A stretch of DNA of 64,000 nucleotides from a bacterium (GCA_965221205.1 OZ244870.1:1038065-1102064); one strand, 5' to 3'; shown: positions 3,067 through 60,734, counted from the stretch's first letter. Notes: generated by a model from the letters alone, not told the origin. Translations and numbers: made by a program.

Positions 3067-3508
3067 ACAGGAGCTTTTGGAAATCTATAAGCTTCACGCC
3101 GAACTTGCGGACAGGGTGAGCCAGAGACGGGAGGGGGCAAACAGGCTTTATGTAAGTCTGCTCGCGGGCATTTTTATTCTCCCTGCCGCTTTTCTAAAAT
3201 ATGGGACGGAAACCATTCCTGATTGGGTTATTGTGCTGGTAGCAGCTATTTTAGGCGGTTTTCTTTTTTTGTCGTGGTGTCTTATTATTCGTTCCTATTA
3301 TCGATTGGATAGGAGGAAATGCAAGGTATTGTGCGAGTTGGAAAAAAAACTTGTCTACCCTTTTTTCAAGCGCGAACGGGAGTTACTGGAAGAAGAAAAA
3401 AATATAAATAAATCTTGGGAGCTTATAGAGATTGAACATTTTCTTCCTTTTGGTTTCTTTATGGTTTTGCTGTACTTGTTTGTGTTTGGTGTCATCTATT
3501 TTTTTTAA
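3053..3508 (+). CDS. Small two-TM membrane protein, SLATT-like effector candidate
   Basis: 151 aa; N-terminal charged helix then two hydrophobic helices (LYVSLLAGIFILPAAFL and WVIVLVAAILGGFLFLSWCLII) plus hydrophobic C-terminus; ATG overlaps the end of the TIR-like ORF by 14 nt. Confidence 0.5.
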   Translation: MDQDRQELLEIYKLHAELADRVSQRREGANRLYVSLLAGIFILPAAFLKYGTETIPDWVIVLVAAILGGFLFLSWCLIIRSYYRLDRRKCKVLCELEKKLVYPFFKRERELLEEEKNINKSWELIEIEHFLPFGFFMVLLYLFVFGVIYFF

Positions 3509-3512
3509 TCAA

Positions 3513-5360
3513 ATGAACCCTCCCCTCAAAATAACCCCAGTAAAAGGCCGTCCGATGCTTCATTGGGTTGGCAAGAAGCCGCTCGATGTTGTCCGGCATT
3601 ATCCCGCGCAGTTGTGTGAAAGTGTTGGCGTTGAGAATCCACCTGTTGAGCCGTCTTATGCGGAATTCATCGAGAGCAACGCCAACCTGCTTTTTCACGG
3701 CGACAACAAGGAAATCCTGTCGTCTCTTTTGATCGCAGGGTTTCGGGGAAAGGTGGATTTAATCTACATCGACCCGCCGTTTGATTCCGGTGCGGATTAT
3801 GTCCGCAAGGTGAGGCTGCGCGGAGAGTCCGAAAGACTCGACGGTCAGGGCCACACTTTTCTGGAACAGGTGCAATACGAGGACATCTGGGCGAACGATA
3901 ACTATCTGCAATTCATGTATGAACGTCTGATTTTGATGCGGGAATTGCTGAGTGACACAGGAAACATCTTTCTGCAAGCTGATGACAAGAAAGGACACTA
4001 CTTGAAGATTCTTCTCGATGAAGTTATGGGAGAGAAAAATTACATCAATGACATTATTTGGCGCAAAGGAAGAGAAGGAGGCGGAGGCACGAAAGTTAAT
4101 CCTCCTCTGCCAACAGAATACCAAAACATCTATCTGTATGCCAAAAAACGCGACTCTCGAAAGTGGAACGCTCCACGCGGTCCCTATAACAAAAGCACTC
4201 TAAGTTCTTTGAAGAAAGATGAGAAGGGATGGTTTTATATGCGCGGTCGGATGGGACGACAGCCAAGACAATGGGAAATTGAAGCAGGCGTTGCGAGAAA
4301 AACTTATGTTAGTGAAAATCAGAACGAGTCAAGAGAGTCAGTTATACAAAGATTAACAACATTGGGAGGAAAGTTTGTCCTAATCGGGGACGTTTGGGAT
4401 TCTTATCTTATCAAAAATTCAACAAAAACCAATTACCCTACAGAGAAACCTGAGGCGTTGCTTGAGATTGCCATAAAATCGGGTACTGATGAAGGTGGAA
4501 TTGTTTTGGACTGCTTTTGCGGTTCCGGCACCACCGCTGCCGTTGCCGAGAAACTGGACCGCCGCTGGATCATGGCGGACATGAACAAGGGAGCGATTCA
4601 GACAACCATCAAAAGGTTGCAGGGTGTTATGGAGAAGAAAAGCAGCGACCTTGTAGAGAAAAACGGGCGCGGGCTTATTCACTATCGGGTGAACAACTAC
4701 GATTACGATGCCGCTGACCAGAATGAACTCAAGAAAATTATCGTTTCCAAATACGGCGTTCAGACAGACCGCAAGGATCTGTTTTTTGACGGAGTGGTTG
4801 GCGACGGGCAACTGGCGAAAATTGTTGACCTGGACAAACCGCTGACGCAACTGGACATTCAGATTATCAAGGATGAAATCGCACAGAACCGACCGGATGA
4901 GATGCGGGATATTACGGTTTTTTGCAACGGCTCGGAACTGGGAATTATGGGAGAACTTGCCAGGGAGAAAAACCCAATCAATACAATCACCGTCCGCGAC
5001 ATTCAACAGGATGGAATGATCACAAACCAGCCCGCCGAGGCAGAGGTTGAGATCAGCAAAAGCGGCGAAAGGGTGAAGGTGAAAATTGTCGATTACATCA
5101 GCCCCGCCATACAGGCCCGGCTGGAGAGTGACCGCACCATTTTTGATGAACGGATTGACGACTTCCGGGCGCAGATTGACTGCGTGCTCATCGACACCGA
5201 TTACAACGGTGAACATTTCAGAATAGTGGAAAGCGACCTGCCGGAGAAAAAAACCGATTTCATCAGGGCTAAGTATGAATTCACGCTGCCCCGTGCTGGC
5301 GCGAAAGTGGCGGTGAAAATCGTGGATATGCTCGGTGAGGAAGTTTTGACGGTCAAATGA
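3513..5360 (+). CDS. mod: Type III DNA methyltransferase Mod (beta-class N6-adenine type)
   Basis: Motif IV IYIDPPFDSGADY precedes motif I LDCFCGSGTT; start taken at ATG 3513 (MNPPLK) just after the stop of the upstream ORF at 3506-3508, rather than the ORF-track start 3432. Confidence 0.8.
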   Translation: MNPPLKITPVKGRPMLHWVGKKPLDVVRHYPAQLCESVGVENPPVEPSYAEFIESNANLLFHGDNKEILSSLLIAGFRGKVDLIYIDPPFDSGADYVRKVRLRGESERLDGQGHTFLEQVQYEDIWANDNYLQFMYERLILMRELLSDTGNIFLQADDKKGHYLKILLDEVMGEKNYINDIIWRKGREGGGGTKVNPPLPTEYQNIYLYAKKRDSRKWNAPRGPYNKSTLSSLKKDEKGWFYMRGRMGRQPRQWEIEAGVARKTYVSENQNESRESVIQRLTTLGGKFVLIGDVWDSYLIKNSTKTNYPTEKPEALLEIAIKSGTDEGGIVLDCFCGSGTTAAVAEKLDRRWIMADMNKGAIQTTIKRLQGVMEKKSSDLVEKNGRGLIHYRVNNYDYDAADQNELKKIIVSKYGVQTDRKDLFFDGVVGDGQLAKIVDLDKPLTQLDIQIIKDEIAQNRPDEMRDITVFCNGSELGIMGELAREKNPINTITVRDIQQDGMITNQPAEAEVEISKSGERVKVKIVDYISPAIQARLESDRTIFDERIDDFRAQIDCVLIDTDYNGEHFRIVESDLPEKKTDFIRAKYEFTLPRAGAKVAVKIVDMLGEEVLTVK

Positions 5361-16540: not shown

Positions 16541-17494
16541 GTGAATCAAGAGATATTAGATATTAAACAAGACATATTTCAATCGCACTATGAAATAGTA
16601 TTAGGTGATACTCTTGGAAATTTGCGCAAGACAGAATCGGAAAAATTTAATTTAATTATTACTTCACCTCCATACAACATTGGGAAAAATTATGAAACAA
16701 AACAACCTATTGAAACTTACCTAAGTCAGCAAGAAGAAGTTATTGATGAATTGGTGAGAATAATTTCCAATCAAGGAAGTATATGTTGGCAAATTGGAAA
16801 TTATGTAAATAATGGTGAAGTTTTTCCATTGGATATATACTATTATCAAATTTTTAAAAAGCATAATTTATTTTTAAGAAATAGAATAATATGGCATTTT
16901 GGACATGGTTTACATGCTTCTAATAGATTTTCAGGAAGATATGAAACAATATTATGGTTTACAAAAAGCAATGATTATATTTTTAATTTAGACGAAGTTA
17001 GGGTGCCATCAAAATATCCGGGCAAAAAGCATTTTAAGGGTCCAAAAAAAGGAAAGTTTTCTGGTAATCCTAAAGGTAAAAATCCAACTGACATATGGGA
17101 GGTTTTACTGAGTGATTGGGAAAAGGAAATATGGAATATCCCAAATGTGAAATCTAATCATCCTGAAAAAACAATACATCCCTGCCAATTTCCAATAGAG
17201 TTAGTTGAAAGATTTATTTTAGCGCTTACTAATATAGGAGGTTGGATTCTTGATCCATATGCTGGTGTAGGTTCTTCAATTATTGCCGCTATAAAAAACA
17301 ATAGAAATGTAATTGGAATAGAAAAAGAAATTGATTATGTCGATATAGCAAAGGATAGAATAAAAAAACTGTTTGAAGGTAATTTAAAGCTCAGACCTAT
17401 GACAAAGCCTATCCACCAACCTTCACCAAAAGATAAAATTGCTAAAATTCCTGAAGATTGGCTGTTTGATAATAGAGAAGGTAATACTCAATGA
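16541..17494 (+). CDS. DNA methyltransferase, beta-class (N4-cytosine or N6-adenine)
   Basis: Motif IV TSPPY precedes motif I LDPYAGVGSS; GTG start; stop overlaps the next gene start (ATGA). Confidence 0.8.
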   Translation: MNQEILDIKQDIFQSHYEIVLGDTLGNLRKTESEKFNLIITSPPYNIGKNYETKQPIETYLSQQEEVIDELVRIISNQGSICWQIGNYVNNGEVFPLDIYYYQIFKKHNLFLRNRIIWHFGHGLHASNRFSGRYETILWFTKSNDYIFNLDEVRVPSKYPGKKHFKGPKKGKFSGNPKGKNPTDIWEVLLSDWEKEIWNIPNVKSNHPEKTIHPCQFPIELVERFILALTNIGGWILDPYAGVGSSIIAAIKNNRNVIGIEKEIDYVDIAKDRIKKLFEGNLKLRPMTKPIHQPSPKDKIAKIPEDWLFDNREGNTQ

Positions 17495-18105
17495 AAATTG
17501 CACAAAAATATTCACATTTAAATGGAGAAGAATACTTGATAGTTCACCATAATAAGTTATACTCTGAGATTAAGAGAATTATTCAAAGTATCGATGCGGA
17601 TAATTTTAAAACAAAAATTAGTAAAGAGAAAACTAAAAAAGGTTTAAAGCTTTATAGCCCAATAGGATTGAATAAAGTATTTGATAAGTTGTTTTCAGAG
17701 AACAATTGGAAGGAAAGTAGATATCAGTACTATATTACACTCAATAGGGAATTAATGGAAAAAAGCATTTTACTTCCGGCTAAAGAACAAAAGGATTTTT
17801 TAGTTTCATCAGGTGAAAAAGAGCCATTATTTTCATACAACCAAACAGATTTTGTAAAAGAAAAGATTGCAGTTGAGATGCAATTTGGTAAATACTCATT
17901 TGTTGCATATGATTTGTTCGTAAAGCATATGTTGTTTTACTCAGGTGGTATTATAAATCTAGGGATAGAAATATTACCTACTAAAAAGATGCAATCTCAA
18001 ATGTCGTCTGGAATTGCATATTTTGAAGGAGAGGTTTATAACGTTATGCGGCATGGAAGAAATAACCCACCAATTCCTTTGCTAATAATTGGTATTGAAC
18101 CATGA
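17491..18105 (+). CDS. Type II restriction endonuclease, BglII/BamHI family
   Basis: 204 aa; block VEMQFGKYSFVAYDLFVKHMLF closely parallels BglII TLVEVQFSNYPFLLNNTVRSELF (recalled from memory); 4 nt overlap with the methyltransferase. Confidence 0.65.
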   Translation: MKIAQKYSHLNGEEYLIVHHNKLYSEIKRIIQSIDADNFKTKISKEKTKKGLKLYSPIGLNKVFDKLFSENNWKESRYQYYITLNRELMEKSILLPAKEQKDFLVSSGEKEPLFSYNQTDFVKEKIAVEMQFGKYSFVAYDLFVKHMLFYSGGIINLGIEILPTKKMQSQMSSGIAYFEGEVYNVMRHGRNNPPIPLLIIGIEP

Positions 18106-33597: not shown

Positions 33598-36411
33598 TCA
33601 AGCGCCGCCAATGCCCGCGTGGCGTGAAAGAATGCTCTGAATATCACCGGGGGCTCTCGATATATCCCCTGCCCAGCGGCCAAAGCCGCCATGCGCGTTG
33701 ACGGCGGTGATCCATTCGTCGAGAAACCGGCGTTTGGTTCGGTCCTGTTCGCTGTCCTGTCCCTTGGTTTCCAACACGAGTATGTCGCCGGACCTGAACC
33801 GGATGAGGAAGTCGGGACGGTACTTCCGCACCACGCCGCGATGGACGTAGAACACTTCGAAGCCCAGGTGATCGTTTTTCACCCAGGCGGCGACCTCGGG
33901 GGCGTGATCGAGGGCAAAGGCTTCCGACGATTCCCAGGTGCTGTCATAGACGCAGAAATTGATATGGCTGCGCGCCGTGGGCTCGCAGGGCCTGCCGGTG
34001 TACCATGTCCCCATGTCGCCGGTTGAACGGATGGGCCGGTCCCGGTCGAACACCGGCTCCAGACTCTCGGTGTTCTCGAAGCGGATGGCTTCCCAGATAT
34101 GCTGGACCACCTTGGTCATGTTGAGCGTGATGATGAGACGGCGCTTGAGATCGTCGCGGAGGAATAGTGCAGGCGTGATGCTGATTCTGTCCGAACGGAT
34201 GAATTGATCGACCAGCCGTACCAGTTGGGCCAGCAGGAATGCTTTGCCTCCCCGCCAGTTCTTTTGCATTTGGTCGTAAACGTCCCGCGCGGTCTCAAAG
34301 ATAATCCGCTGTGTCCGAAACTCCCGCGCCAGATTCTCCAAGTCTATAGCCTCGATCTTCGTCACGTCCGGTTTGCCGGCGACGATTGGGGCAAGCTCCG
34401 CGATTCTTACGGTCCTGCCAACATCGAGTTCCAGGCTTGCCACCTTGTTCCAATCCAGGGAGAGCTGCGGTCGGTATACGTGGTCGATGCGGATCACGTT
34501 CGGCCAAGAGATTTCGAAAGCCGCTTTGCCCGTTACCGGCTCAATAGCGGTCTTTGGCGTTGGCGGCGGTGGAGGGCCGCTCTCTCCACCTTCGTGGGGC
34601 AGAAAAGTGAAGGGCACGCCGAAAATATTGACGTACTCCGGCTCGAACAAACCGTTGTTCGGGTTCACATCGTAAGATGTGCGGCGCAGGCCGCGTCCGA
34701 CGACCTGTTCACAGAGAAGCTGGCTGGTGAACGCGCGGAGGCCCATGATGTGTGTCACGGTCTTGGCGTCCCATCCCTCGGAAAGCATCCCGACGGAGAT
34801 CACATTCTGGATCAGCTCGCCCGTTTTCCCAGGTTGGCCCACGGTGTTCACCTGCGAGCGCAGCAGCTCGGCTTGCTGTTTTTTGGTTAGCTTGCGTGAG
34901 GGGCCGCCGTTCGCAGCTTCTTCGCTCTCGCCAGCGCCGATCTCCGCGATCGGCTCCTCGGCGGCCTCGGCCGCGTCAAGTACCCTTGAGTCGATATGAA
35001 GGGTTCGCGCCGGGTCGCAAAGCTCGCTGATACGGACTCTGCTGTGGTCGAATGCGTACTTGATCCGGGCTGCGGTCTCGGTGCGATTGGCGACGGTGAT
35101 CATCACTGGCGGGGTTTTGGACCCGTCCTTTCTCCATTGCTTAGATGTCTCGCGCCAGTCGAAGCCGAGAAGGCAGTAGCCATTGACCACCAGGTCCGGC
35201 AGCGGTTCTTCGGGCTTGGCCCGCCGGTTTAAGTCGTCCTTGACCTCGGCATCGTTGTAGATGTGGTAGAGGCGGGATTTGTAGGTCGTGACGTCAGGTA
35301 CCGCATCGTCGCGAATCACGACGCGTGGGGTCTTGACCAAACCGGACTCGATGGCGTCGTTCAGGCCGAAGTCGCTCACGATCCAGCCGAACAGCGCCTC
35401 CTCGGAACTCCGTTTACCCGATGGCGCGAAGGGCGTGGCGGAGAAGTCGCAGCAAGCGAGAATGCCCCGCGCCCTGTCGATCCGATCCAGGCCGCCAACC
35501 CACTTGGTCGCTTCCTCGATTTCATCCCTGGCAACACCTTTGACCTTGGATTCGGCGGGAACGCGCCAGGCGTGATGCGCTTCGTCATTGATGACAAGAA
35601 TGTTCCGGGCGTTCGCCAAGTCGCCCAGAACCTCGCGGACATAGGCTTCGTCGCTCTTGGATCTCCGTTTATCTACGCTGCGTTTTCCGGCAATCCTCTC
35701 ATCGGTCTCCCAATTGAGTGCGTGCCAGTTGCGGACCACGACCTTGCCTTGGCGCAGCTTGTCGAACAGGGACGACGGAACGACGTGGAAAGCTTTGTAG
35801 TAGTTCTCCGCATGAGACGGTTCCAAGACGGCCAGACGGTTCTTGACCGTGAGTCCCGGAGCGATAACCAGCACGTTTCGGGCGAATCGCGCATCCTGGG
35901 AATAGGTGACCTTGTTCAGGATATGCCAGGCGATGACCATGGCCATGACGACGGTCTTGCCCGAGCCGGTCGCCATCTTTGCGCACAACCGCCCAATCGG
36001 CCCGCCATCGGAAGGGATGTCAACGCCAATTTTCTCGGCCGCTGACGCTTCGGCAAGCCAGATCAGCGTCTCGACAGCCTCCAGTTGGCAGAAGAAAAAT
36101 CGACGGTTATCGAACTCCTCCGGGTTCGTCCAGTGCTCCAACAGCCGCTTCGTAATTCCCGTGACACCCGGATACCCGGCTCCACGCCACGCCCGTACAC
36201 GCGGACGAATCCGGTTGACCAGGGGAATCTCGACGAAATGGCCCGGATCATCGAACGATCGGGAGCCCTCCGAGGCAATGACGTATCCGGCCGGCCGGCG
36301 GCCTTGCGCACGGTCGAAAAGGCGCGTCTGGCGGTCGTAGCTCCAGTGTTGGCCCGGCTCCTCGTAGGGAGAGTTGATAATCAGGCGATCGATGGTTGTT
36401 TGCGCCATCAT
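33598..36411 (-). CDS. res: Type III restriction enzyme Res subunit
   Basis: Walker A ATGSGKTVV, DEAH box VINDEAHH, helicase C-terminal motifs; start ATG 36411 (MMAQTTIDRLIINSPYEEP) overlaps the hepT stop (ATGA); inside the GC-rich island. Confidence 0.85.
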   Translation of the reverse strand: MMAQTTIDRLIINSPYEEPGQHWSYDRQTRLFDRAQGRRPAGYVIASEGSRSFDDPGHFVEIPLVNRIRPRVRAWRGAGYPGVTGITKRLLEHWTNPEEFDNRRFFFCQLEAVETLIWLAEASAAEKIGVDIPSDGGPIGRLCAKMATGSGKTVVMAMVIAWHILNKVTYSQDARFARNVLVIAPGLTVKNRLAVLEPSHAENYYKAFHVVPSSLFDKLRQGKVVVRNWHALNWETDERIAGKRSVDKRRSKSDEAYVREVLGDLANARNILVINDEAHHAWRVPAESKVKGVARDEIEEATKWVGGLDRIDRARGILACCDFSATPFAPSGKRSSEEALFGWIVSDFGLNDAIESGLVKTPRVVIRDDAVPDVTTYKSRLYHIYNDAEVKDDLNRRAKPEEPLPDLVVNGYCLLGFDWRETSKQWRKDGSKTPPVMITVANRTETAARIKYAFDHSRVRISELCDPARTLHIDSRVLDAAEAAEEPIAEIGAGESEEAANGGPSRKLTKKQQAELLRSQVNTVGQPGKTGELIQNVISVGMLSEGWDAKTVTHIMGLRAFTSQLLCEQVVGRGLRRTSYDVNPNNGLFEPEYVNIFGVPFTFLPHEGGESGPPPPPTPKTAIEPVTGKAAFEISWPNVIRIDHVYRPQLSLDWNKVASLELDVGRTVRIAELAPIVAGKPDVTKIEAIDLENLAREFRTQRIIFETARDVYDQMQKNWRGGKAFLLAQLVRLVDQFIRSDRISITPALFLRDDLKRRLIITLNMTKVVQHIWEAIRFENTESLEPVFDRDRPIRSTGDMGTWYTGRPCEPTARSHINFCVYDSTWESSEAFALDHAPEVAAWVKNDHLGFEVFYVHRGVVRKYRPDFLIRFRSGDILVLETKGQDSEQDRTKRRFLDEWITAVNAHGGFGRWAGDISRAPGDIQSILSRHAGIGGA

Positions 36412-36602
36412 GCAGTCTCCGGTAGCACCAGCGGTTCGATGAGGTTGATGAGACGGGGAATGTCCTGTTGTGCGGTCTTCCACACATGCTTCAGGTCAAC
36501 CTCGAAATAGGCGTGTACGAGGCGATGTCGCATCCCAGCGAACTCCACCGCACCCCGCGCTGCCAGCAGCATGTCGAGCAGACAGGCATCGTCATGCCGC
36601 AT
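36408..36602 (-). CDS. HEPN-domain toxin (HepT/DUF86-like), short form
   Basis: R-x4-H-x-Y motif in GMRHRLVHAYFEVDLKHVW; start overlaps the mntA stop. Confidence 0.55.
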   Translation of the reverse strand: MRHDDACLLDMLLAARGAVEFAGMRHRLVHAYFEVDLKHVWKTAQQDIPRLINLIEPLVLPETA

Positions 36603-36903
36603 AGATCGTCTCGGCGGATTGGAGGATTGCGGCACGGCGAATGTAGTTTCGGCTCTGTTCGACCGCCGTGCGTTCGAACAGGTCTACCTCCCGGCCGAGT
36701 ATCCGAGCCAGATCGGCCTGCATTCGCGCCATGTCCAGAAGTGTGTGGCGCGCTTGTTGCTCGAAACGCACCAGTACATCCACATCGCTTTCCGGTCCGA
36801 AGTCGTCCCGTAGCACGGAACCGAACAGCGACAGTTCGACGATCCGCCAGCGTTTACAAAAGTCGGCTATCTCGTCTCGCGGTGTGTCGATATGTACACT
36901 CAT
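36592..36903 (-). CDS. Nucleotidyltransferase (MntA-type antitoxin)
   Basis: GS-x9-DxD motif LFGSVLRDDFGPESDVDVLV; start taken at internal ATG 36903 immediately after the upstream stop at 36906-36908. Confidence 0.7.
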   Translation of the reverse strand: MSVHIDTPRDEIADFCKRWRIVELSLFGSVLRDDFGPESDVDVLVRFEQQARHTLLDMARMQADLARILGREVDLFERTAVEQSRNYIRRAAILQSAETIYAA

Positions 36904-36905
36904 GC

Positions 36906-37748
36906 CTATAACACTTGGTTCGCGTCGACATTGAAGCCGACACTCTTTAGCTCCCGAATAAGTCTTAGCTTCCAACCATCCGAGCCGTCCAACGGAATGT
37001 AAATGACTCCATCATAGTCCGAGGGCGTCTCTACGTTACCTTTCACCAAAGTGCAGACTCGCTCTCGACCGAGTTTGCCAATGAAGTACCCGAATTCGAA
37101 AATCACGTTCTGTCTCGCCCGTGGCTTTTGATTCTTCTTGTCGTCCGCAAGCGCGCCCACGTCGTCCGGGGTCAGCAGGACCACCGCGAACCCAACTTGC
37201 GCATGTTCCTCAAACTTCTCGATGATCGTGCGGCCCTTATTCGGTTGTTCGTGCAGGATTACCGGTTCAAGATCCAGCCTTTCTAGGAATCTTGCAACCG
37301 TTCTCCGAGCAGATTCGTCGTGGCCATGGATGACGAAAACTCTGTTACTGCTCGATCGTTTGTCGATTCGTTCCGAGTCAAGCGCTGAAATGTCACTTTG
37401 ATCTATGGGTTGCGTTGGCGTCTGGTTTTCATCAGACCAATACTCCTCGATCTCCTCGATCATGGATTCGAGTACTGCGGCCGCTGATTCCAAGCCTTTC
37501 ACATAAACTTCCTGGCGTTCTGACTCAGGCGGCTCAAAGTAGGCAGGGGCAGGAGAAAAACGGATATTTTTGAAGTCTCCAATGTGGGCCGACTTGCTCT
37601 CAAACGTGTTGGTGATAGCGACCTCTGTGTTTCTTTGCCACTTATCAAACTCAGGTGAGCGGTACTTTAGGTTTTTTAATTTGGGTATTGCATCCAATGC
37701 TCTCCGCAGGCGCTCCAGACCCTTGGCTTTTATTGGTCGCGCCATCAC
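36906..37748 (-). CDS. TIR-like nucleotide-binding protein (COG4271/PF10137-like C-terminal domain) with unknown N-terminal domain
   Basis: C-terminal block RVFVIHGHD..FAVVLLTPDD..ARQNVIFEFGYFIGKLGRERV..PSDYDGVIY matches the TIR-like family pattern recalled from memory; start overlaps the Mod stop. Confidence 0.6.
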   Translation of the reverse strand: MMARPIKAKGLERLRRALDAIPKLKNLKYRSPEFDKWQRNTEVAITNTFESKSAHIGDFKNIRFSPAPAYFEPPESERQEVYVKGLESAAAVLESMIEEIEEYWSDENQTPTQPIDQSDISALDSERIDKRSSSNRVFVIHGHDESARRTVARFLERLDLEPVILHEQPNKGRTIIEKFEEHAQVGFAVVLLTPDDVGALADDKKNQKPRARQNVIFEFGYFIGKLGRERVCTLVKGNVETPSDYDGVIYIPLDGSDGWKLRLIRELKSVGFNVDANQVL

Positions 37749-40133
37749 TCCACCTCCACCACTTTTAAGCTCTCGATGCCGCGGTCGTCGACGATCTTGA
37801 CGGTGATGCGCCGGTGTCCGCCGACTTCGAAGGGGAGGGAGGACGTCCCGCGATAGGCCTCAACCAGGTCTGTGTCGATCTCGGCCTTGAGATTCCGGGC
37901 GAGTTTTGCCCAGCCGTCCCTGCTGCCCGCCATGGGAAAAAACACCTGGCGGGGAAACAGGCTGCGCCCGTCATAGTCCGGATCGAGCATCCACATAGCG
38001 ATCTTGTCCGAGCCGCCCGATTCCACGTTGCCGGTCTTGGTGTTGTAATAGTCGAATCCTTGGACCGAGACGCGGAACTTGCCCTGGTCTTCGCCTTCCT
38101 TGATCCGCTCGACTTCCATGTCCGGCTGGCCGATCAGCCAGAAGCTCTCGTTGCTTGTCCGCTTCTTCTTGAGGTCGTCGGTCAGCAAATCGGCGTTCAT
38201 CTGCACTTTTAACAAGGTGGCGCCAGGCCAGCGGGTTTCGTCGATGTCCTTGGGACGCTTCGGGATCGAACTGGAAGGCCGCAAAGACGATAACCTTGGG
38301 TCGTGGGGCAAGACTTTGTGCCTCCTCGATGGCGCGTGCCACCTGCCGCTGCTCCAGCGGTGCATGATCCGGCCCAAACGAGACCACGAGCCGTTCCGGA
38401 TTGCGGGTGGTAGCGGGGTCTTGAAAGCCGTCCGTCCCCGCATCGCCGGGCCGCGTCTCGCCCTCGGCGTGCAGCCATCGGGTTGCGGGCAGCGGTTCCA
38501 GCCGAGCAAATGAGATTCGCTGCCCGTCCTTGCCGCGAATGCCGGTCTTGAACAACTCGTCGCGCCAGTCGCCTTGGCGCACGGTCGGTCCAGTACGCGC
38601 CACGGAGGTGTCTGCCGGCAGTGCCTCGGACTCTTCGATGTCGTCCAGGGGCTTCACCGTTGGCGCGGGAACCGCTTCCACGGTGAACGGTCCGGTGACA
38701 CGGGCTTTGCGCCGGTTGATCTCCGGTTGATCGTAGAGCGTGGTCTCGTTGGGCGGTTCGTCATAGCCCAAAGTCTTCGCCGATACGGTGGCGACGCTGT
38801 GGTAACGAAAACCGGCCCCAACTCCTTCGTCAGGATGGGCCAGTTTGTAGTAGTGATAGTTCGCCGTCATGAGGCGCTGCTTGGCCAAGACTGTCGCGAC
38901 GCGCGATGTGTCGCAGGTGATCCATCTTCTGCCCCATTGCTCGGCGACGTGGGCAGTGGTACCGCTGCCGCAGGTTGGGTCAAAGACCAAATCGCCCGGA
39001 TCGGTGGTCATCAGGATGCAGCGCTGAATCGCCTTGTTAGCGGTCTGGACCACATAGTGCTTGGCACTGGGCGACATTGGTGCTGCCCAGATGTTGTTGA
39101 TTGGTCTCCCCGGAACCTCATCTTCATACCGTTTCCACATCAGTGACGTCTGGTTCCCCAGGGCTTCCAACCGACCTAGTTCGGCGAGTCGGTCTATTCC
39201 CTCTTTGGAAATGCGCCATTGGCTGTCCCTGCTACAACGAAAGACGCGACCGTCATATTCATAGGGTTCGGAGCGCGCAACCGTGGAAACACCCTGCGAT
39301 TCAAGGGGCATACGGCGATAAATGCGCCCGCCCTCCGGCAAGTGCTTGTCTGGGTCGAAGCGTTCTTCGGGGGTGGGTTTACGGCACTGGCCGTCAGGCA
39401 GTTCGACACTCACATATGAACTGAAAAACTCGATCACCTCGGCCCGCGTGAGCGACTCATACAATTGCCGGTATTTCACAAGCCCTCGGTCTCTGGCATA
39501 CCACAACAGATAATCCGCAACTTGGGGCAAGGTCTTAGCAGGACTGTTGCCGGTGGTCGCGTAGGAAATGGTTGCCATCCGGTTCTCTGCGCCGAAGATG
39601 TCGTCCATGACTAGGCCGACGCGGTGGATATTTTCGTCGCCGATCTGCACGAAGACACTGCCGCTCTCATGCAGCAGCTCGCGCGCCAACAGCAGGCGGT
39701 CGCGCAGATAGGCGAGATACGAATGGATGCCGAGTTCCCAGGTATCGCGGAAGGCGCGGATCGTCTCCGGCTCCTGGGTCAGGTCCTCGTCCCTGCCGTC
39801 GGTCACGGTGCGCTGGTTGACGAATGGTTGGAAGTTCGAGCCGTAGCGGATGCCGTAGGGCGGGTCGATGCGCTCATGGACGTGCAGGGATACGGTGGGG
39901 ACTTCGAACGAGGTGTGCTCGTCCTTCCCGGCCCAGACGAGCTGCGGATCCAGGTGCGGATCGTAAGCGTAGGTTGTCTTGCCCGCATCCTTGTCGGTCT
40001 CCGGTGTCACCAATCCGACAGGCGGGTTGTTCACACGCTCCTTGCCAGTGTGCGTGTAGTTTTCAACCTCACGCTTTTTTCTGTTCTTCGGTCCCGCTAT
40101 GTCGTTCCCCTTAACTTCGGTCTCTGTCTCCAA
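37745..40133 (-). pseudogene. mod: Type III DNA methyltransferase Mod, apparent +1 frameshift near 38252
   Basis: ORF 37971-40133 carries DPPY, NIWAAP and FDPTCGSGTT motifs, then turns into Arg-rich nonsense after ..FQFDPEA; ORF 37745-38509 continues in another frame with a Mod-like C-terminus; junction at a GGG run (plus 38252-38254). Confidence 0.7.
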
Positions 40134-46893: not shown

Positions 46894-47118
46894 AAAACAA
46901 CAGGGAATATTGCAAATAACTATTTGATTTTGGTAAAAATATTCGTATTATTACGCTGGAAATTATCTTCCAGTTGCTGTCTTGGTTTGTGGTTTGTGCA
47001 TTCCTCAGTTCACTCAATTATCATGTAACGCGCGAATTTTTCTCACTTCCGGAACGTAAAGTATACTTGGATTGTTTTAGATTCGCGTATCAGGGGAATT
47101 TCGCCCAACGATGGATAA

Positions 47119-48108: not shown

Positions 48109-49320
48109 ATGCACAAAAATACATTTTCAATCGATAGATATTGCTGTAGCAATCCGGCAAAAACCGTATTCGCTTTTTTTCTTTTCGGACTGTTCGCCTG
48201 TGGTGAACTCCTGACAGAAGCACCCACCGGGGGAGATACTCTCGACGGAACACTTTCCGGAATTTCATCCGAGTTAAATGCATCGTTTGTTCGTGGAGAC
48301 GAAGCATTCGAGAAGGTTTTTACTGTATCATCTGGACTGGGTCCCATTTTCAACCAGCCGAGCTGTGAAACGTGCCATCAGGGTGACGGCAGAGGAACAC
48401 CCGAGACAATTCTGATCCGTTTCAGCAGAGGGGCCGACTTCATAGAAAATGAGGGTGGTGGACAGTTGCAGGATAAAAGTATCACAGCTGTACCGCAAGA
48501 GATTCTTCCATCCGGTGTCGATACATCGCCGAGAATGGCACCTCCGGTGTTCGGAATGGGGCTCATCGAAGGGATTCCGGATGAAACACTCCTTGCACTC
48601 GAAGACCCGGATGATCTCGATGGGAACGGTATTTCAGGCAGAGTGAACAGAGTACCTTCTATCGAAACCGGCACCATGAAAATTGGTCGGTTCGGCAGAA
48701 AAGCAAACACTGCCACGCTTGTTGATCAGGTCTCGCTTGCCTATCATCAGGATATCGGCATTACAACCGACGTAATTCCTGACGAAAATCGACATCCGCA
48801 AGCGGGGAATGTTGCGCTGGGCGATGTTGTACCCGATCCGGAACTTTCGATTTCAACCGTTTTTGATGTGGTGATGTATATCAGATTGCTTGCCCCGCCA
48901 GACAAGGGTTCTGAAACAGCCGAAACGGAACGGGGAAAAACAATTTTCAATGCAATAGAATGTTCTGCATGCCATGTTCCGTCACTGCAGACCGGTCAGA
49001 ATGTGATACCGCAGCTGGACCGTGTTGCTGCCGAACTTTATTCCGATCTGCTGCTCCACGATATGGGATCAGAACTGGCAGACAATAGGCCTGACTATGA
49101 GGCGACGGGTACGGAATGGCGGACACCGCCACTCTGGGGTCTCCGTGTTGCGGGCAATGCACTCGGTGGAAATGTTACGTACCTCCATGATGGCAGAACA
49201 TCCGACTTGTCAGAAGCGATTAGGCTTCACGGTGGAGAAGCAGAAATTGTACGGAATAGATTTAGCGACCTTTCCGAAGAAGACCGGAACGCATTAATTG
49301 CGTTTCTCTTATCATTATAA
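48109..49320 (+). CDS. Di-heme cytochrome c oxidoreductase (DUF1111/thiol oxidoreductase-like)
   Basis: Two CxxCH motifs (CETCH, CSACH); GLGPIFNQPSCETCH block; signal peptide. Confidence 0.6.
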   Translation: MHKNTFSIDRYCCSNPAKTVFAFFLFGLFACGELLTEAPTGGDTLDGTLSGISSELNASFVRGDEAFEKVFTVSSGLGPIFNQPSCETCHQGDGRGTPETILIRFSRGADFIENEGGGQLQDKSITAVPQEILPSGVDTSPRMAPPVFGMGLIEGIPDETLLALEDPDDLDGNGISGRVNRVPSIETGTMKIGRFGRKANTATLVDQVSLAYHQDIGITTDVIPDENRHPQAGNVALGDVVPDPELSISTVFDVVMYIRLLAPPDKGSETAETERGKTIFNAIECSACHVPSLQTGQNVIPQLDRVAAELYSDLLLHDMGSELADNRPDYEATGTEWRTPPLWGLRVAGNALGGNVTYLHDGRTSDLSEAIRLHGGEAEIVRNRFSDLSEEDRNALIAFLLSL

Positions 49321-52748: not shown

Positions 52749-53450
52749 ATGAAACTACTCGATTTGACCGGTGTGAACGGGAAACAGGTCATGCTGAAGC
52801 CCAATTTCAATTCGGCCGACATTACACCGGGTTCGACCCATAACGACACCCTCTTACAGTTTGTTTATGAGTTGCATGAGTGGGGTGCGCGCGGAATAAC
52901 GCTCGGAGAATCGAGTGGACCGACCAATACAAAACGCGTTATGGAGAACAAAGGGATTTTTGACATGGCGGACGAGCTCGATTTTGGCATCGTCAACTAT
53001 GATGATATTTCTGATAAAGAGTGGATAAATTATCCGAGAGAGGGCACACACTGGCCGGGAGGTTACTACCTGCCGGAGCATGGTGTCAAAGCAGAATATA
53101 ACGTTTCGACGTGCTGTTTGAAAACACACCAGTATGGCGGTGTGTTTACAATGTCACTCAAATTGTCGGTTGGTCTTACACGGAAATCGATTCGCAGTAC
53201 CGACCCGAGACGGACAATGCACCGGTCATCTGATATGAGACGTATGATTGCGGAACTGAATGAAGGCTACAGCCCGCAGTTAATAGTGCTCAACGGAATC
53301 GATGCATTTGTCGACGGTGGCCCATCAGAAGGTGAACTAAAAAAAGCCGATGTCGTAATTGCCGGTCCCGGACAGATTGAAATAGTAACGCCCGACGATG
53401 AGAGCCGGGCGTATGCAAATGTGTTGAAACCTATACTTGCGCAGGGATAA
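52749..53450 (+). CDS. DUF362 domain protein
   Basis: VMLKPNFNSAD..TLGESSGPT pattern; start may lie upstream because the frame is open before 52749. Confidence 0.5.
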   Translation: MKLLDLTGVNGKQVMLKPNFNSADITPGSTHNDTLLQFVYELHEWGARGITLGESSGPTNTKRVMENKGIFDMADELDFGIVNYDDISDKEWINYPREGTHWPGGYYLPEHGVKAEYNVSTCCLKTHQYGGVFTMSLKLSVGLTRKSIRSTDPRRTMHRSSDMRRMIAELNEGYSPQLIVLNGIDAFVDGGPSEGELKKADVVIAGPGQIEIVTPDDESRAYANVLKPILAQG

Positions 53451-54794: not shown

Positions 54795-54858
54795 CAAAAA
54801 ATGATTTTGAATATCGAATTATTTTCTTAAATAATATATCTTTAAATATTCAATATGA

Positions 54859-55723
54859 ATGCAACTTATGAAAGAAATTGTATCGGACATAATATTAGGT
54901 GACTGCTTACAAGAACTTAATAATTTTAAATCAGAAAAATTTGATTTAATTATAACATCTCCTCCTTATGCTGATAGTAGGATGAGTACTTATGGAGGAA
55001 TCAAACCGGATAAATATGTCGAGTGGTTTTTAAAAAGATCATTAGAATTTTATAGGGTGCTTGATGAAAAGGGAACATTTATATTAAATATAAAAGAAAG
55101 AGTTGATAAAGGCGAACGTCATACTTATGTGATAGAATTGATTTTAGAACTAAAGAAACAAGGCTGGTTATGGACTGAGGAGTTTATATGGCACAAAAAA
55201 CTCTTATCCCGGAAAATGGCCGAATCGATTTCGAGATTCTTGGGAAAGATGTTTACAATTTAACAAAAGTAAAAAATTTAATATGTATCAGGATGCAGTA
55301 ATGGTACCAATGGGAAGTTGGGCTGAATCGAGATTAAAAAAATTAAGTGAAACTGATAAAACACGTGATAATTCTAAAGCGGGGAGCGGTTTTGGGAAAA
55401 ATGTATCCAATTGGATTGGAAGGGATATGGTCTATCCAACTAATGTATTACATTTAGCAACAGAAACTGGTAATAAAAATCACAGTGCAGTATTTCCTAA
55501 AACGCTACCTTCTTGGTTTCTAAAATTATTTACTAAAGAAAACGATTTGGTTTTGGATCCATTTGTTGGATCTGGTACAACTTGTAGAGTTACCAGTAAA
55601 TTATTAAGAAATTCGGTAGGTATAGAATTAAATCCAGAATATTACAATATGGCGAAGGGAAAAGTACCATCTTCAAATCTATTATTGCTTGAGAAAAAAG
55701 GTGAATATGGGAGAAATAAATAG
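54859..55723 (+). pseudogene. Beta-class DNA methyltransferase split by a frameshift in an A6 tract
   Basis: ORF 54859-55263 has motif IV ITSPPYA; ORF 55283-55723 has motif I LDPFVGSGTT; the second frame is open back to 55154 and reads ..GTKKNSYPGKWPNRFRDSWE.., so one extra A in the A6 run at 55195-55200 would fuse them. Confidence 0.7.
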
Positions 55724-55740
55724 AGTTGCGTTGACAGAAT

Positions 55741-56436
55741 TTGTTTAAGGCTAAGAATATTAATGAAGGAAGTATATTAGTTAAAGATGATTTAGATGCA
55801 TATTTATCTTCGAGGGAAGAAGGGATATTTGGTACGTTTTTAGAAGGGCTTGCAATTTATACATGTAATAATGTGTATAATGGAAGAAAATCATCAGCAG
55901 AGGGAATAGATTTAGAATTTGAAAGAGAAAATGTTTATTGTATTGTTACTATAAAATCAGGTCCAAATTGGGGTAATAATCAACAAATTAAAAGAATGAA
56001 ATCAAATTTTTCAAAAGCAAAAAAGATTTTACGCTCCAATAGAGGGAGCATAAATATTTCGGCAATTAATGGTTGCTGTTATGGTAAAGATAATAATCCC
56101 GACAAAGGTGAATATTTTAAATATTGCGGTGAAAGATTTCGGACATTTATTTCTGGTGAAAATGCATTGTATTTGGATATAATAGAACCACTTGGCTATA
56201 AAGCTAAAATTAAAAATGATAATTATCTCAAAGAATATTCAAATAGTGTCCATAGAATCACTAAAGAGTTTATAAATGACTTCTGTGACGCATCAGGTCA
56301 AATTCTCTTTGGAATAAACTTGTTCATTTTAATTCAGGTAAAAATAACCCTTAACCATTTACTCCATCAATTTATCAACACTCAGCATATCTTTTTCTCT
56401 CGGCACAATTATAACAAATGTAAGCAACACCAGTAA
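55741..56436 (+). CDS. Putative Type II restriction endonuclease (PD-(D/E)xK-like), cognate to the adjacent methyltransferase
   Basis: TTG start right after the methyltransferase; GIDLEFERENVYCIVTIKSG resembles a D..E-x-K core; the C-terminal 25 codons overlap the convergent membrane gene and may be spurious. Confidence 0.35.
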   Translation: MFKAKNINEGSILVKDDLDAYLSSREEGIFGTFLEGLAIYTCNNVYNGRKSSAEGIDLEFERENVYCIVTIKSGPNWGNNQQIKRMKSNFSKAKKILRSNRGSINISAINGCCYGKDNNPDKGEYFKYCGERFRTFISGENALYLDIIEPLGYKAKIKNDNYLKEYSNSVHRITKEFINDFCDASGQILFGINLFILIQVKITLNHLLHQFINTQHIFFSRHNYNKCKQHQ

Positions 56437-56784
56437 CGGGAAGTTATCGCCTGACATATCGAAGAAGGGCTCTTTAAGGAGGTTGCCATAGGTCACGATG
56501 ACTAATTTCGAGCCAAGAACTGCACAGCTTTCCTTCACTCTGAATCCGAGACATAACGGCCCACCCGCAAAAAATTCCAGATACGGCACTAAAAATCCAA
56601 GCGTCCAAAGCATCCAAACCGGAATCCATGTATCCTGATATCTGCCGACAAAATTTTCGCGGGCAAATGCAACTGCACCGATTGAGAACGATTTGAAAAA
56701 TCCCCGCATCAGAAACATCAGTCCTAAAATCCGCCGGGCAAAAAACAGTGCCAACGCACTACCGTCTATTGTTGGTTTTCTCAT
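56359..56784 (-). CDS. DoxX-like small membrane protein
   Basis: 141 aa with several hydrophobic helices in a DoxX-like arrangement. Confidence 0.35.
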   Translation of the reverse strand: MRKPTIDGSALALFFARRILGLMFLMRGFFKSFSIGAVAFARENFVGRYQDTWIPVWMLWTLGFLVPYLEFFAGGPLCLGFRVKESCAVLGSKLVIVTYGNLLKEPFFDMSGDNFPLLVLLTFVIIVPREKDMLSVDKLME

Positions 56785-56994
56785 GATTTTTCCCTATGTA
56801 GTGTATTTTAAATTAAACTGTGTAAAATTACTAAATGGATGTATTATGATAAAGAACTCTCTTTAAAATACGCTTTTTGTGCACATTGATCCCCAGTGAC
56901 TCCACCAATTCTTTTGACATTGTCACTGCTCTGTTCTATATTGCCACCTTGCACATTGATAGAACCGTTTAATAAGCATATAATGGATTGAATA

Positions 56995-58862
56995 ATGAAA
57001 AGTCTGTGGAACGAACAGGTAGAAAAACTATGTGCACGATCCACTGCAGATGTGCGTTTACACATCGCGACTTATCGGGCAGGACGCAGCATCACTCGTG
57101 CTGCATAGCGGCGGAAACACTTCCGTAAAAGCATCGGTGACCGGATATTTTGATGAAACACTTGAAGTGCTGTATGTCAAAGGAAGCGGCTGGGACCTCG
57201 TAGCCATCGAAGCGGAAGGATTTGCCCCGGTCAGGCTCGAAACGCTAAAGAAAATGGCTGAGTTCAAATCGCTCAGCGATACACTGATATGGTTCTCGCC
57301 CAGTGGGCTGCAATGGACCGACCAACAGGCACCTAATCCCTCTGTAGAAGCTATATTGCATGCCATCATCCCCTTTGCATACGTTGACCATACCCACACC
57401 GATGCCGTTGTTGCGGTCACCAATACCGACAATGGTGAAGAAAAAATACGCGAAATTTACGGCGATAGGGCGCTTGTCATTCCGTATGTCATGCCAGGAT
57501 TTGAGCTTGCACGCTATATCTACGAAAAAACACGGGGCATTGACTGGAACACCATCGACGGGATGGTGCTGCTGCATCACGGAATTTTCACCTTTCATGA
57601 CGACGCACAAACAAGTTACGAGATGATGATTGAACTCGTATCGCTTGCGGAAGATTATCTTTCACAGAAAGGCGCTATTCAGGCAGTAATAAAAACTGCC
57701 GATAGTACTCCAGATATTCCCTTGTACACTATTGCTCATCTCCGGAAGGAATTGTCAAAATCCGCCGGATTTCCCATGATTGTGCAGCTCAACACCAGGG
57801 AAGAAGAGCGTGGTTTTGCAGGCAGGCCTATTTTAAGAGACATTCCAGCAGTGAACTGACAATGGTCGACCCGGCGCCGCGCTGGATCGTCTGGCCGAAG
57901 ATAGAGACTGCGTCCTGCTGGCAAAAACCTGAAAGCGATTCGGATCACGAATGATATTGTGCGCCACACTATAACTGCTATTCAGTGGTGTGAAGCTCTC
58001 GGTGGTTGGAATGCACTGCCGGAGAAAGACATATGCGATATCGAGTATTGGGAGCTTGAGCAGGCAAAAGTTAAAGAAAAGCAGTGGGAAATCCTTGCAG
58101 TTTGAGGGTAAAATTGCCCTCGTTACCGGAGCAGCAAGCGGAATTGGCAAAGCGTGTATCGAGGCACTGCTCGCTGAAGGTGCTGTCGCTGTAGTTCTCG
58201 ACATCAATCCCGATTTGAAGAAAATCTTTTCCGACAGCCGGGTTCTTCCGATCGTCTGCGATGTGACGGATGAAAACAGTATCGAAAACGCCTTCGGGCA
58301 GATTGTTCTCCGCTTTGGCGGGCTCGATATTCTCATCAGCAATGCCGGTGTTTTTACAAAAAGCAGCGGTTTCGACGAAATGAAACCGGACATCTGGGAA
58401 AAAAGCCTTGCTCTCAACCTTACTTTGCATCAGCGGTTTCTAAAAGCGGCGATTCCCTTTCTGAAGCACGGTATCGATTCCGCTGTTGTGTATATCGGTT
58501 CCAAGAATGTTCCGGCGACGGAACCCGATGCAGGTGCCTACTCAGTTGCGAAGGCCGGCCTGACACAGCTCAGCCGGGTGGCCGCGCTTGAATTGGGACA
58601 ATTCGGAATCCATGTCAATATTATCCATCCGAATATGGTGTTCGATACAGCTATCTGGACTGACGAGGTATTACAGGAGCGGGCTGCGCGCTACAACATG
58701 AGTGTCGAGGAGTACAAAACGGATAACCTGCTGAAAACCGAAGTCACATCTTGGAATGTTACGGAACTTACTGTATCGATGGTGTGGGCGCAGCGTTTGC
58801 TAAAACTACAGGCGCACAGGTCTCCGTTAATGGGGGAAATGAACGTGTCGTTTGAGCGATAA
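56995..58862 (+). pseudogene. Bifunctional class II aldolase/short-chain dehydrogenase (rhamnulose-1-phosphate aldolase-SDR fusion type), disrupted by several frameshifts
   Basis: N-terminus MKSLWNEQVEK (ATG 56995) shifts frame at an A5 run (57023-57027) into the aldolase frame (..SLVLHSGGNTSVK); the linker is spread over three frames (..DIEYWELEQAKVKEKQWE); SDR part from 58107 (GKIALVTGAASGIGK). Confidence 0.6.
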
Positions 58863-58874
58863 TGCGGCCGGTAT

Positions 58875-60548
58875 TTATTGTTCGTGTCTGATAACGATAC
58901 CGGGACGCGCTCCGGTCATATGTCCATTTTCGATTACAAATTTTCCATTGACGAGCATATAATCAATCCCCTCTGCATATCTCAGAGGATCAGTAAATGT
59001 CGCCCGGTCCTGAATCGTCTCCGGATCAAATATAACGATATCAGCCGCGTATCCGGGATTGATTTGCCCGCGGTCTGCCAATTTAAGAATCTCTGCCGGA
59101 AGCGAGGTCATTTTTCTAACAGCTTCCTTAAGGCTGATGATCTGTTTTTCCCGGACATAGTGAGCAAGTATTCTTGGGAACGCTCCAAATGCGCGTGGAT
59201 GTGCACTTGCTGTTGATTCGGGATTGATCGGAGAAGCATCGTTATCGAAGCATATAAAATCAGCCCGCAACGCAAGGTGTTTCTGTTCCTCATTCATGCT
59301 TACCGGTGCTACACTTGTCCCGGCAATGACAAGGTCAAAAAACATATCCCAGACATTAACACCCTTTTTAGCGGCCGCTTCTTCAATCGATAATCCGACC
59401 AGGCTTTCAAACTGCTCATCATTAACCCCGGTAATCAGAACTTTATACCAGTTGCTGCCTGTCTGCCGGTAGAAATTCTCCCAGTCCGCTATGGTTTCGA
59501 TTTCCCGTCTGAGTTCCTGCCGGAAATTCGGTTCATTTAATTGACCGAACAGTGCGTCCTCTCCGTGTGCGAACCGGTTGGGGTGGATAAATGCACTGAG
59601 TCCGAGTCTGCTCCTAATATAAGGATAGATATCTGCGGTAATATCAAGACCGTCTCGCCGGGCATCGGAAATTTTCTGCAGCGCCTGTTCCATGAGCGGC
59701 CAGTTATCCTGCCCTGCTGCTTTCAGATGAAAAATATGACTTGGCAATCCTGCTACACTGCTGATACGAATTACCTCATCGACAGCTTCAAGCAAGCTGC
59801 CGCTTTCGTTCCGAATGTGGGATAAATATATCCCACCATGCTCAGCGGCTGTGCGTGCAAGCTCGGTAATTTCTTCAGTTGAAGCGAATGCGCCGGGGGG
59901 ATAAATCAACGCGGTTGAAAGCCCCACGGCACCGTCATGAATTGCCTCGGAAACAAGCTCTTTCATCTTCTCCAACTCGCCGGGAGTCGGTGCCCGGTCT
60001 TTTTCACCAACCACGATCCGACGGACTTGGCTTGAACCGACCGTATGGAGCACATTCAGTGCAATGCCTTTCTTCTCAAGCAGCGGAAAATATTCTGAAT
60101 ACGTTGACCAGGTTTCGTCGACACTGCGGTACTCGCTATTCGTACTTGCTTCGGAGCGGGGTGCAACGGTTGTACCTTCACCGACAAGCATCGTCGTTAT
60201 CCCTTGGCGGAGTTTACTCTCAGCGGTGACCGGGTCACTGAGGAGCGGCACACTGCTGCCGCCCATCATATCGATAAAACCGGGTGTGACAACCCTGCCG
60301 TTAGCATCGATTACCATTCCGGCAATTTCGTTGGGAAGCATGCCGATTTCTCTAATTATCCCATCCTTGACTGCAATATCGGCTGTATAACCTGCTGCTC
60401 CTGTTCCGTCGATTACGAGTGCATTTTTGATGATAACGTCAAAATCATATGACGATGAGCAGTTGAAAAACAATCTGCCAATCAGAATGAGCATGAGAAA
60501 TGATGTTGAAGAAGATGGTATTTTTCTTCTAATATTCATTCGATTCAT
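58875..60548 (-). CDS. Amidohydrolase family protein (N-acyl-D-amino-acid deacylase-like)
   Basis: About 558 aa from the internal ATG at 60548; GTGAAGYTADIAVKDGII..PGFIDMMGG pattern; the HxH motif is replaced. Confidence 0.65.
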   Translation of the reverse strand: MNRMNIRRKIPSSSTSFLMLILIGRLFFNCSSSYDFDVIIKNALVIDGTGAAGYTADIAVKDGIIREIGMLPNEIAGMVIDANGRVVTPGFIDMMGGSSVPLLSDPVTAESKLRQGITTMLVGEGTTVAPRSEASTNSEYRSVDETWSTYSEYFPLLEKKGIALNVLHTVGSSQVRRIVVGEKDRAPTPGELEKMKELVSEAIHDGAVGLSTALIYPPGAFASTEEITELARTAAEHGGIYLSHIRNESGSLLEAVDEVIRISSVAGLPSHIFHLKAAGQDNWPLMEQALQKISDARRDGLDITADIYPYIRSRLGLSAFIHPNRFAHGEDALFGQLNEPNFRQELRREIETIADWENFYRQTGSNWYKVLITGVNDEQFESLVGLSIEEAAAKKGVNVWDMFFDLVIAGTSVAPVSMNEEQKHLALRADFICFDNDASPINPESTASAHPRAFGAFPRILAHYVREKQIISLKEAVRKMTSLPAEILKLADRGQINPGYAADIVIFDPETIQDRATFTDPLRYAEGIDYMLVNGKFVIENGHMTGARPGIVIRHEQ

Positions 60549-60734
60549 TTTTTCCCTGTGTGTCAATTGTGTCAATTGTAGATATGTCATGAGAACAGTG
60601 AAACAAAAGATATACTTTGCAGTATATGATAGCAAGACAATTATAAACTCCTTGCTATAATGATACGTCTGCTCTATCTTTCTAATAACTTCTTTTGACA
60701 AAATGTATTTTCATAGATAATATCGGTGGATTAA

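Follow-up and report, generated by a model that had tools for sequence, protein, structure and literature searches.

A decaying AT-rich Type II restriction-modification cassette in which the endonuclease was probably broken before the methyltransferase

A methyltransferase gene read as two frames on either side of a run of six adenines, with a putative nuclease gene downstream, raises the question of whether such a locus is a phase-variable switch, a sequencing error or an inactivated enzyme, and whether the nuclease would endanger its host while the methyltransferase is off. These options had been raised in a preliminary description of the window, by which we mean the whole 64,000-nucleotide stretch of bacterial DNA analysed here. 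Our comparisons of the locus across strains and homologues indicate that it is very probably a horizontally acquired, AT-rich Type II restriction-modification (RM) cassette in progressive decay. It would have comprised a beta-class SPPY methyltransferase and a tightly coupled EcoO109I/PmeII-family PD-(D/E)XK endonuclease, with the nuclease broken first and the methylase later.

The cassette has a GC content of about 0.28-0.36, against about 0.45-0.50 in the flanks, according to the composition profile. The island is bordered on one side by a DUF1232 gene, whose stop is at 54794, and on the other by a convergent minus-strand gene for a 141-aa protein (56359-56784), whose stop is at 56359. No convincing direct or inverted repeats or mobility genes were found in the cassette flanks, and a promoter and terminator scan of the locus gave matches at chance level only. 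The island and the features of its first gene are as follows.

54795..56358, no strand: AT-rich island holding the RM cassette (composition profile, ORF list and Pfam match for DUF1232)
54859..55723, plus strand: methyltransferase pseudogene, beta-class N4/N6, M.PvuII-like (PF01555 match of the repaired protein)
54958..54969, plus strand: catalytic motif IV, S-P-P-Y (sequence reading; aligns to SPPF of M.PvuII)
55195..55200, plus strand: A6 tract, the frameshift splitting the methyltransferase (2-nt contraction of an ancestral A8 in W-H-K-K-N)
55556..55582, plus strand: AdoMet-binding motif I, D-P-F-V-G-S-G-T-T, in the downstream half (aligns with M.PvuII and M.MboIIA)

The methyltransferase is read as two ORFs, 54859-55263 (134 aa) and 55283-55723 (146 aa), and an independent assembly lists each half separately with a PF01555 match. 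When the frame is repaired, the halves become one enzyme of 285-287 aa that matches PF01555 (N6_N4_Mtase) in a single stretch over residues 29-266 in the profile search (2.2e-41), which bears out the earlier view of one gene split at the A tract. The profile match, and the position of motif IV before motif I, place the protein among the beta-class N4/N6 methyltransferases. Its nearest solved relative is M.PvuII (1boo, 1.2e-24, residues 11-265). It resembles the M.PvuII-like N4-cytosine methyltransferases in the PF01555 domain, the match to 1boo and an SPPY motif preceding FVGSGTT (55562-55582), but differs from M.PvuII in that the reading frame in the window is broken by the change from A8 to A6. 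The SPPY motif and M.PvuII as the closest solved structure suggest, and no more than suggest, that the chemistry is probably m4C.

The A6 run is real: positions 55195-55200 read AAAAAA, with C on either side. Its length alone is unremarkable, as the window holds 96 homopolymers of 6 nt; what is non-random is its position, inside a strongly conserved domain that it breaks up. We rebuilt the tract with four to eight A's. The frame was restored only by A5 or A8, that is by the loss of one A or the gain of two, and A7 led to a stop. The proposal that the gain of one A would fuse the halves is thus incorrect, and reads supporting A7 would leave the gene broken.

To place the tract in its family, 80 genome loci were fetched with the methyltransferase as query. 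The W-H-K-K-N stretch is kept in 78 of the 80 homologues. The length of the A run within it varies (2 nt in 7 loci, 3 in 1, 4 in 1, 5 in 50 and 8 in 21), always in frame, and is set by the synonymous choice between AAA and AAG codons. The tract is a by-product of codon choice serving as a mutational weak point and not a regulatory switch.

Eight assemblies of the same locus were found by exact-protein look-ups. Clade 1, about 99% identical to the window, contains the window together with the Logan assembly of ERR13605531 (L002), ERZ25067264 (L003/L097; a 3.42-Mb circular contig at 34x coverage) and ERZ25072076 (L001/L004/L098; a 3.83-Mb contig). Clade 2, about 96% identical, contains five assemblies from four samples (L092-L096). 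The sequence CAC-A8-C, which encodes W-H-K-K-N, is present in ERZ25072076 and in all five clade-2 assemblies, whereas A6 is found only in the window, the Logan assembly and ERZ25067264; no assembly of the locus has A7 or A9. An intact 285-aa methyltransferase allele, 99% identical, is encoded in a sister strain, and among the eight assemblies only that of L098 has the gene intact. Because A8 is present in the related assemblies and W-H-K-K-N is conserved in the homologues, A8 is ancestral and A6 is a 2-nt contraction of it.

A6 is linked to derived SNPs at 54906, 54928, 55000 and 55204, where L098 keeps the clade-2 alleles. Recombination import into L098 was considered for the SNP cluster at 54906-55204 and rejected, as clade 2 shows the L098 alleles to be ancestral and those of the window and L097 to be derived. 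Over 12.9 kb, the window differs from L001 by 53 SNPs and only three indels: two nucleotides lost in the A tract, two (TC) gained at 56304-56307 and, in a different gene, an in-frame 9-mer. Both 2-nt frameshifts lie inside the cassette. An indel census over 10.5 kb in seven assemblies counted 17 events, in which frame-breaking coding indels were confined to the cassette and, in clade 2, DUF362.

Several differences between the strains lie outside the cassette. The DUF362 gene (52749-53450, plus strand) is intact in the window clade (233 aa) and is present in L092-L096 as pieces of 117 aa and 99 aa, one nucleotide having been inserted and 28 deleted (window positions about 53034 and 53115). A cluster of 17 substitutions in 57 nt (49209-49265) separates the window from L001 in a cytochrome c/DHOR-like gene (48109-49320), against a background divergence of about 0.3%; it looks like a small recombination patch. 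The copy number of 7-nt and 10-nt tandem repeats varies between strains at 46961-46990, in the intergenic region after 46893, and an in-frame 9-nt indel distinguishes strains at 60559-60567 in an amidohydrolase gene (58875-60701, minus strand).

If A6 were an assembly or base-calling error, a true A8 would have been under-called and the methyltransferase would be intact. The names and coverages of the contigs point to metagenome assembly from long reads, and A8, which exceeds every other homopolymer of the 12.9-kb comparison in length, is the likeliest site for a miscall. However, A6 recurs in three assemblies (the window, the Logan assembly of ERR13605531 and ERZ25067264) that represent two strains separable by SNPs and the TC indel, and A8 was called in six other assemblies, apparently by at least two assemblers judging from contig names. 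The window itself holds six 8-nt homopolymers. An error would have to remove two nucleotides, and the removal of one was never seen; homopolymer differences in the census were all consistent within clade, with no other homopolymer discrepancy violating that pattern. The second frameshift in the cassette, the TC duplication, lies outside homopolymers. We therefore regard the sequencing error raised in the preliminary description as very unlikely.

Phase variation, the other dynamic explanation put forward for the tract, would make the methyltransferase a contingency gene in which slipped-strand mispairing at poly-A toggles methylation and restriction in the population. The lesion is a homopolymer length change that turns the window methyltransferase off, as in a phasevarion; the ancestral 8 nt are among the shortest lengths at which slippage is known, and ON (A8) and OFF (A6) alleles occur among near-identical strains. 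Against this, the two tract states among the eight assemblies track the strain tree, with linked SNPs as near as 4 nt, and heterogeneity with single-unit steps or reversals is absent from these assemblies, as is heterogeneity within clades. A6 has no one-step return to the ancestral frame, the addition of one A giving a stop. The tract is short, it lies mid-gene within a conserved motif, and at the DNA level it is not maintained across the 80 homologues, where all lengths are in frame. With the partner endonuclease broken in all strains, there is no restriction to switch. A phase-variable methyltransferase is accordingly highly improbable. Since A6 is common to two distinguishable strains, is linked to SNPs and is never replaced by A7, it is best read as a fixed pseudogenising mutation of the ancestral A8, which agrees with the option of an inactivated enzyme.

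A split gene could in principle still give an active methyltransferase, either because the ribosome or the RNA polymerase slips on the A run or because the fragments assemble as subunits. A-runs are able to promote slippage, and split methyltransferases exist; here both halves keep their motifs, SPPY and FxGxG. Rescue would, however, need a shift of +1 or -2 on six A's only. A6 is derived and absent from the 80 in-frame homologues, so that no conserved recoding site is present; reading in one frame is seen in 80 of 80 homologues and in six of the nine copies of the locus, unlike a programmed frameshift. Were the halves translated separately, the conserved segment NSYPGKWPNRFRDSWERCLQFNKSKKFN that lies between them would be missing, and the dead endonuclease leaves no selective need for rescue. 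We consider an active split enzyme extremely improbable.

The fixed loss of the methyltransferase frame leaves the state of its partner to be considered. The features of the endonuclease gene are given below.

55707..56354, plus strand: endonuclease pseudogene, EcoO109I/PmeII-family Type II (PF14511 match)
55707..55748, plus strand: endonuclease stump with the native ATG, 13 codons (MGEINRVALTEFV) and a premature TAA arising from the deletion (three-frame translation)
55739..55745, plus strand: junction of a 95-nt out-of-frame deletion between TTTGT direct repeats (eight-way alignment, gap of 29+66 columns; indel census)
55909..55956, plus strand: PD...(S/T)xK catalytic block (GID...VTIK) of the remnant (family alignment)
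56304..56307, plus strand: TCTC, a TC tandem duplication in the window strain only, which frameshifts the last 16 endonuclease codons so that WNKLVHFNSGKNNP is lost
56306..56436, plus strand: out-of-frame read-through tail of ORF 55741-56436 (about 43 codons), non-ancestral coding that overlaps the convergent 141-aa gene

The ORF at 55741-56436 matches PF14511 (RE_EcoO109I) at 1.5e-63 with 214.6 bits (cut-off 22.5), over profile positions 38-198 only. This significant match assigns the ORF to the family, and the N-terminal helices that complete the domain (N-I-x-x-F-H ... R-K-N-P-Y-L) are missing, residues 14-44 being deleted. The preliminary description had outlined here a TTG-initiated ORF with a PD-(D/E)xK-like block. 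The nuclease block stands, but the ORF with these limits is no gene: its 5' end results from the 95-nt deletion and its last 43 or so codons are read-through. The ancestral endonuclease would have had about 246 aa, starting at a native ATG at 55707 and overlapping the methyltransferase stop by 17 nt.

The start of the gene is documented by the sister strains. The stump matches the N-terminus of both the clade-2 allele and the family, and the clade-2 allele reads MGEINRVALTEFVEENIKTFHNKRIDKLKSLKLSVLLKRKNPYLFKAKN... from the ATG equivalent to window position 55707, in agreement with the family N-terminus. As clade 2 retains this sequence, the 95-nt deletion in clade 1 is proven. Upstream homology in the TTG frame, which is interrupted by several stops, was tried as an alternative and rejected, as the ATG at 55707 in another frame fits the family N-terminus and the clade-2 allele requires only the single deletion. 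The deletion is common to all three clade-1 strains, including the one with an intact methyltransferase. It takes about 31 residues (about 14-44) and puts the other 203 codons out of frame with the start. Fourteen of the deleted positions show conservation of at least 90% in the family (N16, I17, F20, H21, R24, L28, L31, L33 and R39 to L44), and the segment corresponds to the first three helices in a confident model of a full-length homologue (pLDDT 86). Short family members of 198-213 aa had been considered as a sign that the N-terminus is dispensable. The DNA-level check, which covered one example (P0035 at L008, 213 aa), identified it as a gene-caller artefact with the full N-terminus encoded in frame upstream, and this candidate was discarded.

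At the other end of the gene, the TC duplication is present in the window and in the independent Logan assembly L002 and is not found in L097 or L098. In the window and L002, the conserved C-terminal WNKLVHFNSGKNNP is replaced by read-through into the antisense of the neighbouring gene. An intact C-terminus is thus preserved in L098 and L097, and an intact N-terminus in clade 2. The 203-codon remnant is still open in two strains, with catalytic residues retained: D100 and K115 (P0002 numbering) are invariant in the family, and the E...D...K set is kept in the window copy. Changes at conserved columns number 8 of 91 in the remnant, a modest excess over the homologues, which average 2.5 and do not exceed 7.

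Membership of the PD-(D/E)XK fold was established on the full-length homologue P0002, which is 66% identical and was modelled with AlphaFold2 at a pLDDT of 86.4. In a fold search, the best PDB match of this model was EcoO109I (1wte; E 9.3e-10, TM 0.64-0.69). Direct sequence similarity to EcoO109I is marginal: the family profile reached it weakly (E 0.005), and phmmer of the endonuclease against the PDB gave no match. NCBIfam held no model matching the endonuclease. The window copy resembles EcoO109I and PmeII in its PF14511 match, its PmeII-named homologues, the superposition of the homologue model on 1wte and the retained E...D...K; it differs in having lost about 31 N-terminal residues (profile positions 1-37) together with the native start, and in a frameshifted C-terminus.

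The pairing of the two genes holds across the family. An endonuclease homologue adjoins the methyltransferase in 72 of the 80 loci (71 downstream on the same strand, 1 on the opposite strand), and it usually overlaps the methyltransferase stop. Together with the PF01555 and PF14511 matches on neighbouring frames of the same strand, this supports the earlier identification of a Type II methyltransferase-endonuclease pair, although neither gene is intact and full-length in the window: the methyltransferase is frameshifted (A6), and the endonuclease carries the 95-nt deletion and the TC duplication. In about 10 of the 80 loci, the endonuclease is missing or fragmentary beside an intact methyltransferase. 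Database homologues are very numerous and come from many phyla, at 65-76% identity for the methyltransferase and 57-66% for the endonuclease; a scan of a genome collection gave only methyltransferases of 64-74% identity, likewise from many phyla. The endonuclease homologues have 245-250 aa, and NCBI gives several of those with 60-66% identity the name 'PmeII family type II restriction endonuclease'. The locus is an ordinary, degraded member of a known and widespread Type II RM family, in which a PF14511 endonuclease accompanies a PF01555 beta-class methyltransferase.

The distribution of the lesions in clade 1, from which alone the order of events is derived, places the endonuclease deletion in all strains, the methyltransferase frameshift in two and the TC duplication in one, and on this ground restriction was lost first and modification afterwards. 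Strain comparison shows the sequence of events: the 95-nt out-of-frame deletion between TTTGT repeats first stripped the conserved N-terminal helices and uncoupled the rest of the endonuclease from its ATG. The orphan methyltransferase then lost two A's in its Lys-Lys-Asn tract (A8 to A6), splitting the gene, and a TC duplication finally frameshifted the endonuclease C-terminus. All three lesions may be products of replication slippage at short repeats. The window strain is accordingly predicted to make no active enzyme from either gene.

This order bears on the claim that the nuclease would be lethal with the methyltransferase off. That concern falls away, as the endonuclease is already destroyed by the 95-nt deletion in all clade-1 strains; with restriction gone ahead of modification, no self-restriction took place. 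In the complete circular genome of L097, A6 occurs together with a 203-codon remnant that is otherwise open. This combination serves as a natural control and indicates that the remnant is tolerated without this methyltransferase.

Clade 2 appears, from its own set of lesions, to have decayed independently and in parallel with clade 1. A 2.6-kb deletion (window positions about 55813 to 58430) takes the rest of the endonuclease while its N-terminus is kept. In the methyltransferase, 5 nt are tandemly duplicated at each of two sites (TATGT after 55014, ACGGC after 55648). One clade-2 assembly has an additional 57-nt deletion. The 2.6-kb deletion also takes the 141-aa gene (56359-56784) and the gene for a class II aldolase (57032-57859), and it removes the 5' part of a short-chain dehydrogenase gene (57990-58862); these three host genes are therefore dispensable.

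Among orphan methyltransferases and degraded RM systems, loss of the restriction gene precedes loss of the modification gene. The present locus is similar in that the endonuclease lesion is found in all three clade-1 strains and the methyltransferase lesion in two, but the orphan stage was short-lived here, with one of eight assemblies keeping an intact methyltransferase. It is conceivable that, after the death of the endonuclease, the methyltransferase persisted for a while in the role of an orphan epigenetic enzyme, with the A8 Lys-Lys-Asn tract acting as a slow, population-level on/off weak point. An A8 tract is present in about a quarter of the family, and the methyltransferase is still intact in the ERZ25072076 strain. 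We consider this scenario very unlikely; if true, strains within one species would differ in their m4C methylomes. A scan of JGI metagenomes for tract-length variants returned no match.

For the cassette undergoing restriction-first decay, a recognition site of the GGWCC/GGNCC type is plausible by analogy. EcoO109I cuts RG^GNCCY. In the PmeII host Pseudomonas mendocina, m5C is found at GGWCC, a motif matching the PmeII site (bioRxiv 10.1101/2021.02.10.430591). The partner in the window is an SPPY N4/N6-type methyltransferase and not an m5C enzyme, in contrast to the EcoO109I/PmeII systems and the m5C at GGWCC in P. mendocina. The observed/expected ratio of GGWCC in the window is 0.81, similar to that of other palindromes, so that avoidance of GGWCC/GGNCC is not distinguishable.

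For annotation, both frames should be labelled pseudogenes of a known RM family and neither a live toxin-like nuclease nor a phase switch. Beyond annotation the locus has little importance. The comparison between strains illustrates two things already expected from RM evolution: that restriction goes before modification, and that slippage at short repeats makes an acquired RM cassette decay in parallel in sister lineages, here through a homopolymer contraction, duplications of 2 nt and 5 nt and a deletion of 95 nt. Only one aspect is mildly notable, namely how clearly a parallel, restriction-first decay is recorded in the sister strains.

Other defence-related genes lie elsewhere in the window. 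An AT-rich island (GC about 0.31) at 16541-18105 on the plus strand holds an apparently intact Type II pair, in which an N6_N4 methyltransferase (317 aa, PF01555 4.7e-51) overlaps a BglII-family endonuclease (204 aa, PF09195 5.2e-27); it is presumably the pair that came first for the preliminary description, in which the present cassette counts as the second. A GC-rich island on the minus strand (33598-40133; GC 0.54-0.62 compared with about 0.45 elsewhere) contains three defence-related genes. A 960-aa ResIII-domain protein and a 719-aa N6_N4 methyltransferase form a Type III-like res/mod pair, and between res and mod (36906-37748) lies the gene for a 279-aa protein with a CAP12/Pycsar TIR effector domain (PF10137 1.9e-42). 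At 3053-5360 on the plus strand, an ORF for a 151-aa member of the 8xMP octameric membrane protein family runs into the beginning of the gene for a 642-aa N6_N4 methyltransferase, and a T8 run (3499-3506) lies where the two overlap.
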